From a virus, in the IMG/VR virus record IMGVR_UViG_3300031997_001311: 16,328 nt of DNA; one strand, 5' to 3'. A program made the position numbers and the translations under genes. Of the stretch, positions 3,411 to 4,325 are shown in pieces (the first letter of the stretch is position 1; every line of letters starts with the position of its first letter). The notes under the pieces were generated by a model. It did not search any database. It was not told the DNA's origin and was given only the letters and a program-made list of their open reading frames with translations.

Positions 3411-4325
3411 CTACTCCTCCATCGCCTCGATGGCTGCATCCAGCTTGCTGCGCATCTCGTCCTCGCGAGACACGGCCTCGTTCCACAGCTCTTCGTCTCT
3501 GACCTCCAGGACGTGCGTCCGCACCAAGTCGGTCAGAACGAGGGGATCCAGAGCGTCCAGCTCCCACGACTCGTCGCCATGCCGGGTGATGTACGAGGCA
3601 GCACGAGAGTCGGACAACTTCGCCGGGTTCGGCGGGGGCTCGTACTCCTCGATCTGCGGCCAGGTCAGCGCGAGCCGAACCACCTCCAGCTCGTGAGTGC
3701 ATTGACTGGTTTTCGCGAACTGCCGAAGGCGATCCTCGACGTCCCTGTCCATGTCGAGGCCGCTCGGATCGTGGTCGCCGAAGTAGAGCACCAGGACGTG
3801 CTGACCACCGCCCCTCTCCAGGCTTCCACGCAGGATCTTACCGAGGGCCTTGCCCCGCTGGTACATCAGGGATGAGGAGGCGTACCCACGGTTCGCGGTG
3901 TACGGGATGTCCAGCTCGCGGCACACGGGCTCCAGGATGCTAGAAACAGCATCCTTCTCCGCGATCACCTCGACCCGCGTCGGCTGGTTTTCCCACTTGT
4001 CGATTGCGAACTGTCTGGCGGCGACCCGGACGATCTCGGCCGGGCTGTCCCAGTGCGACGGGGTCACGGTCTCGCGGACGCGGTCGATGATGCGGTCCCA
4101 GTCGATCAGGCCGGCGAGCCGAGCATCGCTCACGATGTTGCCGATGCGCTTGTAGCTCTGGTCGGTGTTGGGGATGTACCCCCGGGCGACGAGCCTGTAG
4201 TAGAGACCTCGGAGGGACAGGTCGATGCCCTGGGCGGCGAACTCGTTCAGGATCTCGTTGCACCGCTCGATGATCTCAAGAGCATCCCTCTTGAAATCCT
4301 TGCCTGTGATGAAAGCCTCACGCAC
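3411..4325 (-). CDS. wHTH + Toprim protein, Spo11/topoisomerase VI-A-like (also compatible with a JetD-like Toprim)
   Basis: 304 aa, GTG start at 4325 with RBS GGAGGTG. Motifs: LRGLYYRLVARGY (R-x-L-Y-Y, as at the Spo11/TopoVI-A catalytic Tyr), VEVIAEKDAVSSIL (Toprim Glu strand, as VEKdavF), VLVLYFGDHDPSGLDM (Toprim DxDPxG). Confidence 0.7.
   Translation of the reverse strand: MREAFITGKDFKRDALEIIERCNEILNEFAAQGIDLSLRGLYYRLVARGYIPNTDQSYKRIGNIVSDARLAGLIDWDRIIDRVRETVTPSHWDSPAEIVRVAARQFAIDKWENQPTRVEVIAEKDAVSSILEPVCRELDIPYTANRGYASSSLMYQRGKALGKILRGSLERGGGQHVLVLYFGDHDPSGLDMDRDVEDRLRQFAKTSQCTHELEVVRLALTWPQIEEYEPPPNPAKLSDSRAASYITRHGDESWELDALDPLVLTDLVRTHVLEVRDEELWNEAVSREDEMRSKLDAAIEAMEE

Follow-up and report, generated by a model that had tools for sequence, protein, structure and literature searches.

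Mini-A proteins, first described in 2019, are related to the subunit of topoisomerase VI (Topo VI) and Spo11 that cuts DNA and are encoded by phages as stand-alone proteins (Takahashi et al. 2019/2020; NAR Genom Bioinform 2020, PMC7671362). The passages on Mini-A in that paper describe hundreds of ~300-aa proteins encoded by viruses and proviruses of bacteria and archaea, characterized by an RxxY/FY motif, a Glu, a DxDxxG motif, an xWELDAL T2BI box, and no nearby Bergerat-fold "Mini-B"; the xWELDAL box sets Mini-A apart from Topo VI and from Topo VIII (RVELNAM). The panel in the same paper comprises 23 sequences, and a figure legend lists Pseudomonas phage NP1, whose gp49 is one of the Mini-A sequences shown. 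Biochemical activity has been published for no Mini-A member, and reviews and preprints to 2026 call the function unknown. Here, we analyzed a 16,328-nucleotide stretch of viral DNA (IMG/VR record IMGVR_UViG_3300031997_001311, referred to below as the window), in which a minus-strand gene at 3411..4325 encodes a 304-aa protein. By every sequence-level feature of the family, this protein is a member of the Mini-A subfamily, and we consider it likely that it is a Mini-A of a jumbo phage that acts in the manner of Topo VI-A/Spo11 in phage replication or recombination.

A Mini-A protein with the Topo VI-A/Spo11 catalytic residues

To NP1 gp49, the window protein shows 43.7% identity at 97% coverage (tblastn, E = 8e-74), and it matches PHROG 6247 "DNA topoisomerase" over its full length (E = 5.5e-95). 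Its size and architecture are those of Mini-A, with 304 aa, a winged helix and Toprim in an AlphaFold2 (AF2) model, and no N-terminal Top6B-binding part. The R-x-x-[Y/F]-Y motif reads R39-G-L-Y42-Y43, the Toprim Glu is E123, the DxDxxG motif is D184-H-D186-P-S-G189, and the T2BI box is S253-W-E-L-D-A-L259, for which a set of 54 Top6A genes has KLEIEAM. The context is viral, with a 212-kb viral relative, phage-family matches around the gene, and no GHKL protein in the window. The initial annotation had picked out three peptides, which we find at residues 37-50 (SLRGLYYRLVARGY), 118-131 (VEVIAEKDAVSSIL), and 177-192 (VLVLYFGDHDPSGLDM). It had read them as an R-x-(I/L)-(F/Y)-Y motif with a candidate catalytic Tyr, a Toprim Glu strand, and a DxDPxG site, and these assignments hold: R39 and Y43 are invariant, and E123-K124 and G183-DHDPSG are colinear with the Top6A motifs.

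The motifs are not chance matches because they are kept in the 120 best database homologues. R-x-x-[YF]-Y, E-K, GD[HF]DPSG, and WELDA were found in 120/120 of these, with GDHDPSG in 119 and GDFDPSG in the remaining one, and the extended box [SC]WELDA[LVIM] was likewise present in 120/120. An alignment of 28 homologues at 52-94% identity contains 63 invariant columns, among them R39, Y43, E123, K124, G183-D-H-D-P-S-G189, and S253-W-E-L-D-A258. When viral homologues at 20-44% identity were added (NP1, Pam3, JWF, Delta, LWP01, FPSV-S1, HCIV-1, and phiSM, a set of phages and archaeal viruses), R39, Y43, E123, K124, D184, P187, G189, and E255 were still invariant, and the invariance of the catalytic residues reached phage and archaeal-virus homologues at 20-28% identity. 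The family is large, with more than 6,600 homologues of the window protein in a large protein collection. Searching 1.84 billion cluster representatives (clusters at 50% identity) with a profile returned 12,072 clusters at E ≤ 1e-3, 7,879 at 1e-10, and 2,762 at 1e-30. Homologues are present in 85 GenBank phage records, many labeled "DNA topoisomerase" or "DNA topoisomerase VI."

Inteins split two homologues (P0210, 677 aa, and P0266, 662 aa) one residue ahead of the Toprim Glu. The junction in P0266 reads VELW/C...HN/CEKDAL (slashes mark the splice points), with matches to Hint, LAGLIDADG, and intein-splicing domains, and P0210 has the same junction with no Pfam match. Inteins typically occupy essential active sites, and the position of these two supports the prediction that the site around the Toprim Glu is catalytically essential. 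The passages on Mini-A in the literature cited here make no mention of inteins. Fused and extended forms also occur: P0167 (457 aa) carries an N-terminal DUF1643 domain (E = 7.6e-23), P0224, P0185, and P0264 are among the fused or extended proteins (~460-476 aa), and some homologues bear C-terminal extensions of ~160 aa without a Pfam match.

We then compared the protein with Topo VI-A and Spo11, as the initial annotation had proposed. Sequence models gave no support: a Pfam search of the window protein returned only a spurious DndE (E = 0.19) and no TP6A_N or Toprim match, NCBIfam gave no match, neither phmmer nor a profile hmmsearch gave a match in the PDB, and PADLOC gave no match of any kind at E ≤ 10. 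Mini-A is too distant from the TP6A_N and Toprim models for detection by HMMER. In contrast, the fold comparison placed the protein with Topo VI-A. The AF2 model, built from the alignment (pLDDT 89.3, pTM 0.81), has an N-terminal three-helix winged-helix unit with Y43 on the helix 38-47, an alpha/beta Toprim, and two long C-terminal helices (261-275 and 278-303, pLDDT mostly >89). Against PDB structures, the model scored highest with Topo VI-A 1d3y_B (10.6), followed by MksG 8b7f_B (10.2), Topo VI-A 2zbk_A (9.6), Spo11 8uru_A (9.5), and Topo VI-A 2q2e_A (9.3), while a small Toprim protein, topo IA, T4 topo II, RNase M5, GyrB, and primases stood lower in the list. The top PDB match in Foldseek was the Methanosarcina mazei Topo VI-A (probability 0.97); a search of BFVD with Foldseek yielded nothing beyond noise and a fragment of 152 aa. 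The Spo11/Topo VI-A-like winged-helix-Toprim fold that had been proposed from the sequence alone proved to be correct.

Profile alignment with hhalign gave the correspondence of individual residues. Against the 54 crenarchaeal Top6A genes, the Mini-A profile reached E = 0.034, and a broader Mini-A profile reached 0.0019, which is a modest score; the pairs LSLRGLYY/PTIRDLYY, VIAEKDAV/VVEKDAVF, and YFGDHDPSG/ILTDADPYG (Mini-A/Top6A) are colinear. Since the alignment opens at Top6A residue ~67-74, the N-terminal Top6B-binding part is absent from Mini-A. The alignment with a single yeast Spo11 sequence, checked against PDB 8URQ, was weak (E = 0.13) and placed VIVEKEAVF and TDADPYG opposite E123 and D184/D186. 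The spacing from R39 to Y43 is the same as that from R99 to Y103 in the Methanocaldococcus jannaschii Top6A, as given in the passages cited above (PMC7671362).

The gene itself is well defined. Its start codon is a GTG at 4325 and its stop codon lies at 3413..3411, whereas the plus-strand translation of 3411..4325 is riddled with stops. The start is correctly assigned because homologues share the starting residue (MREAF/MKExF). The stop codon of the upstream neighbor (4355..4353) is 27 nt from the GTG, and 3 nt separate the Mini-A stop from the start of the next downstream gene; the open reading frame (ORF) is one gene within a tightly packed run of genes that all lie on the minus strand. On this coding strand, the major vault protein (MVP) homologue is the only ORF in the window longer than 304 aa. 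A plus-strand ORF of 311 aa (2940..3875) is antisense to the Mini-A gene and longer than it, and there are other long plus-strand ORFs, for example one of 1011 aa antisense to the MVP-like gene; these shadow ORFs are artifacts of the 60% G+C content.

Gene neighborhood, proposed action, and alternatives

The initial annotation had noted that no B subunit lies nearby, and we found no GHKL/HATPase domain among the window ORFs scanned against Pfam. We extended the search for a partner to 80 IMG/VR loci plus the window, clustering all ORFs of ≥70 aa within ±6 kb of Mini-A by blastp, so that the search covers neighbors at the sensitivity of blastp. A conserved "Mini-B" partner was not found at this level, with no family except Mini-A and its antisense shadows present in more than 11/81 loci. 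This absence agrees with the published lack of a "Mini-B." The recurrent neighbors were a DnaG-type primase (11 of the 81 loci), DnaB (9), a tyrosine integrase immediately upstream (8), and RecT (6), and further ones were a serine recombinase, UvrD and DEAD helicases, DUF5131, and terminase. Individual phages show similar surroundings. The order in NP1 is ligase, Mini-A, Sak4, Cas4 exonuclease, and helicase; in RDJL Phi 1, Mini-A stands between DNA polymerase and helicase; in Brevundimonas phage Delta, it follows ThyX, with helicase, primase, and RNR close by; in Pam3, helicase and RNR are followed by Mini-A ~3 kb on; and in Listeria phage LWP01, an early operon opens with an excisionase followed by Mini-A, with DNA polymerase ~3.6 kb downstream. 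This pattern points to replication or recombination as the field in which Mini-A acts. The immediate neighbors of the window copy are a GDSL hydrolase and small unknown proteins, and on a related contig of 16.6 kb, the GDSL and DUF2786/DUF7168 genes are likewise found upstream of Mini-A.

A tie between Mini-A and 7-deazaguanine DNA modification was also considered and was rejected as a lineage effect. In NP1 and in the Cellulophaga phage phiSM, which belong to unrelated lineages, biosynthesis genes for 7-deazaguanine (Que/FolE) are found 2-7 kb from Mini-A, and an aGPT-Pplase2 gene lies ~3.5 kb from Mini-A in Pam3. Several Mini-A lineages showed no Que/FolE-type genes in the 4-5 kb flanks examined. 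The tblastn matches of DpdA fell for the most part in phages of Mycobacterium, Escherichia, Vibrio, and Rhizobium, none of which is among the ten organism names tallied for Mini-A, and conversely the organisms tallied for Mini-A are mostly absent from the DpdA matches; our literature search found no link between Mini-A and this modification.

The window protein is a Mini-A with the Topo VI-A/Spo11 fold and the full catalytic set of these enzymes (R39, Y43, E123, D184/D186, and the T2BI residue E255), from which we infer how it acts. By analogy with Topo VI-A and Spo11, its most likely activity would be Mg2+-dependent cleavage and rejoining of DNA through the tyrosine, in the service of phage replication or recombination. 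A Mini-A homodimer would engage duplex DNA without an ATPase subunit, and Tyr43 of one protomer would attack a phosphodiester beside the Mg2+ held by E123, D184, and D186 of the other protomer. The resulting 5'-phosphotyrosyl intermediate would then be resealed or processed. Such a reaction could initiate replication, either recombination-dependent or rolling-circle, by making the required break or nick, or it could relax or unlink replication products without ATP. Cleavage without a B subunit is plausible because mouse SPO11 alone makes covalent double-strand breaks in vitro (PMC11922746).

Two further readings were also considered. The protein could be a viral analogue of Spo11, in which a partner-free dimer would introduce double-strand breaks, programmed and linked to the protein, into phage DNA as it replicates and so start recombination-dependent replication, with the neighboring Cas4, Sak4, and RecT of many Mini-A phages resecting and using the breaks. 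We think this unlikely; if it were true, Topo VI-A-like break-initiated recombination would exist in bacterial and archaeal viruses. Alternatively, it could be a replication-initiator nickase that cuts one strand at a specific origin and becomes 5'-linked via Tyr43, thereby priming rolling-circle replication as HUH enzymes do. The chemistry of the tyrosine would be identical to that of the main explanation, an origin nickase has been proposed for skuldviruses, which have Mini-A and no other recognizable replication protein (bioRxiv 10.1101/2021.07.29.453957), and in the haloarchaeal sphaerolipovirus HCIV-1 the 9 kb examined on either side of and including the Mini-A homologue contain no gene annotated for replication. 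However, most Mini-A phages carry full replication sets (DNA polymerase, primase, and DnaB), WyrdV4 encodes both an HUH Rep and Mini-A (bioRxiv 10.1101/2021.07.29.453957), and it is improbable that a jumbo phage would rely on such a protein as its only initiator. Next to the Mini-A gene, no repeat or origin element was seen, although no dedicated search was made. We therefore regard an origin nickase as quite unlikely for the window protein.

Three other explanations were weighed. It is improbable that the protein is a subunit of an ATP-dependent type IIB topoisomerase whose "Mini-B" ATPase would come from the host or from another part of the phage genome. The Mini-A passages of Takahashi et al. 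leave a distant partner open (PMC7671362), the window shows only 16 kb of a genome of ~200 kb, and the T2BI box, which covers the catalytic Tyr in Topo VI, is even more conserved in Mini-A, suggesting regulated cleavage; against this stand the small genomes of 31-45 kb in which Mini-A is found, the partner search described above, the window without a GHKL protein, and the loss from Mini-A of the N-terminal 5Y-CAP half, which binds Top6B (same passages). A hydrolytic Toprim nuclease of the JetD/MksG/OLD type, in which water would drive the cut and the Tyr would be structural or DNA-binding, is very unlikely. Y43 and R39 are invariant across the Mini-A family as they are in Topo VI-A/Spo11, the T2BI box is of the Topo VI type, and there was no PADLOC match (E ≤ 10) and no DUF2220/DUF3322 match in Pfam. 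The likeness to JetD raised by the initial annotation is one of fold (MksG 8b7f_B). The same resemblance, together with a Tad2-like anti-defense-like gene in the window, is what could favor a non-catalytic decoy or inhibitor of host defense, such as a JetD mimic that poisons Wadjet. We reject the decoy, which the initial annotation had offered as one option, as unsupported and exceedingly improbable: a decoy could dispense with the R, Y, E, DxD, and T2BI-box Glu that stay invariant across a family of more than 12,000 clusters in viruses of bacteria and archaea, and it would leave this invariance without an explanation. Moreover, Mini-A is located in replication modules rather than anti-defense islands, has inteins at its active site, and shows neither JetABC-interaction features nor a PADLOC match.

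The carrier phage and other genes of the window

The window, a whole JGI contig of 16.3 kb, is a fragment of a jumbo phage. This assignment is made because of a syntenic 212-kb relative, a 164-kb contig, and the tmRNA, tRNA-Pro, HNH, Tad2-like, and MVP-like genes of the window. The relative is an IMG/VR viral contig of 211,982 bp, with part of which the window shares 87-97% nucleotide identity in syntenic blocks and whose Mini-A is 95% identical to the window copy; a Mini-A of 64% identity lies on the 164-kb contig, which is crowded with small unknown genes. The MVP homologue also matched MVP chains in the PDB (phmmer, E ~1e-17, residues 511-905), and among GenBank phages it has homologues only in three uncultured huge phages (460-735 kb, 42-45% identity). 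MVP homologues of viruses and bacteria have been reported in preprints (10.1101/2023.11.10.566534; 10.1101/872010). The tmRNA and tRNA-Pro genes both lie between the MVP-like gene and the HNH endonuclease gene, which directly adjoins the tmRNA gene and may encode a homing endonuclease. The Tad2-like gene is a candidate anti-defense gene. As a side observation, a 264-aa protein encoded at 1392..2186 on the minus strand has a sub-threshold match to the C-terminal domain of ribosomal protein L7/L12 (Pfam E = 5.7e-4, 20.6 bits, cutoff 25.9) and two weak PHROG matches over the same region.

Table 1. Features of the Mini-A gene and of the remaining window, in window coordinates.
Feature	Position	Strand	Basis
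Mini-A coding sequence	3411..4325	-	ORF list and translation: 304 aa plus stop
Shine-Dalgarno GGAGG	4332..4336	-	Read from sequence; 6 nt upstream of GTG
Winged-helix/truncated 5Y-CAP domain, ~residues 13-90	4056..4289	-	
R39-G-L-Y42-Y43, conserved Arg and candidate catalytic Tyr43	4197..4211	-	Conservation, Top6A alignment
Toprim domain, ~residues 114-260	3546..3986	-	
E123-K124, predicted Toprim catalytic/metal-binding Glu	3954..3959	-	Invariance, alignment to Top6A/Spo11
G183-D184-H-D186-P-S-G189, DxD metal-binding motif	3759..3779	-	Conservation, alignment to Top6A/Spo11
S253-WELDAL-259 T2BI box, Mini-A signature vs Topo VI/Topo VIII	3549..3569	-	Conservation
C-terminal pair of long helices, residues 261-303	3417..3545	-	AF2 model
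GDSL/SGNH hydrolase	4353..4931	-	E = 1e-16
DUF2786+DUF7168 protein	5793..6623	-	
Small Cys-rich protein, C-terminal DnaJ J-domain	7942..8361	-	
Calcineurin-like metallophosphoesterase	9713..10507	-	Weak PHROG match "DNA repair exonuclease"
199-aa protein, C-terminal Tad2-like (Thoeris anti-defense 2) domain	10767..11366	-	Pfam PF11195, E = 1.7e-19
MVP homologue, 912 aa	12077..14815	-	Pfam MVP_shoulder E = 1.7e-29, Vault_3 1.4e-8, Vault_2 1.5e-3
tRNA-Pro(TGG)	14885..14959	-	
tmRNA	15304..15685	-	Rfam RF00023, 97.6 bits, full length; ARAGORN tag peptide ANEAEVIPFPTMAVPSLQKAA
HNH endonuclease with C-terminal helix-turn-helix	15691..16053	-	PHROG HNH families, to E = 1.7e-14; Pfam HNH_3

Significance and comparison with known systems

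The window gene is a further copy of a family known since 2019/2020 and already propagated into phage annotation. The value of annotating this copy is small, as the family is named, is in PHROGs, and appears as "DNA topoisomerase" in many RefSeq phage genomes; nor does the window copy make the function of Mini-A more testable than the copies in cultured phages do. What it adds is solely that jumbo phages carry Mini-A too. The family matters more: it comprises no fewer than 12,000 clusters (50% identity), occurs in viruses of both bacteria and archaea, is unusually conserved for a viral protein, and, judged from its sequences, retains a complete Spo11/Topo VI-A active site without an ATPase partner. 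Its function, once worked out, would close a gap in the understanding of how phages replicate and recombine their DNA and would inform models of how type IIB topoisomerases and Spo11 arose.

Topo VI-A, Topo VIII, and JetD each have at least one defining feature that the window protein lacks. JetD/MksG of the Wadjet/MksBEFG systems (PDB 8B7F) acts with an SMC complex, whereas the window protein has no JetABC neighbors and matches no PADLOC or Pfam (DUF3322/DUF2220) model of JetD. To our knowledge, JetD/MksG has no catalytic Tyr, which the window protein retains. Topo VIII resembles it in being borne by mobile elements (plasmids) and in lacking the N-terminal 5Y-CAP half, but a fused or split GHKL-H2TH-transducer module and an RVELNAM box belong to Topo VIII; the window protein, with 304 aa, no ATPase domain, and SWELDAL, has neither. 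Spo11 (PDB 8URU/8URQ) is eukaryotic, larger, and partnered by Rec102/Rec104/Ski8 or TOP6BL, and the window protein is barely similar to it at the level of sequence.

With Topo VI-A and Spo11, the window protein shares the CAP and Toprim domains and the colinear Tyr, Glu, and DxD. It does not share their match to the Pfam models TP6A_N (PF04406) and Toprim, the N-terminal 5Y-CAP half, or a B subunit (GHKL/TOPOVIBL). Compared with Top6A (PDB 1D3Y, 2ZBK, 2Q2E, and 9O0G), it is ~90-100 residues shorter, is without the 5Y-CAP half that binds Top6B, and has WELDAL for KLEIEAM. The comparison with Mini-A is the closest. Relative to its nearest Mini-A relatives, the window protein has a loop insertion of seven residues (~residues 168-174, GSLERGG-), and its carrier is a jumbo phage; there is no difference of substance, and length, truncated 5Y-CAP plus Toprim, R-x-x-Y-Y, E-K, DxDPSG, SWELDAL, a viral genome as carrier, and the lack of a B subunit are common to both.

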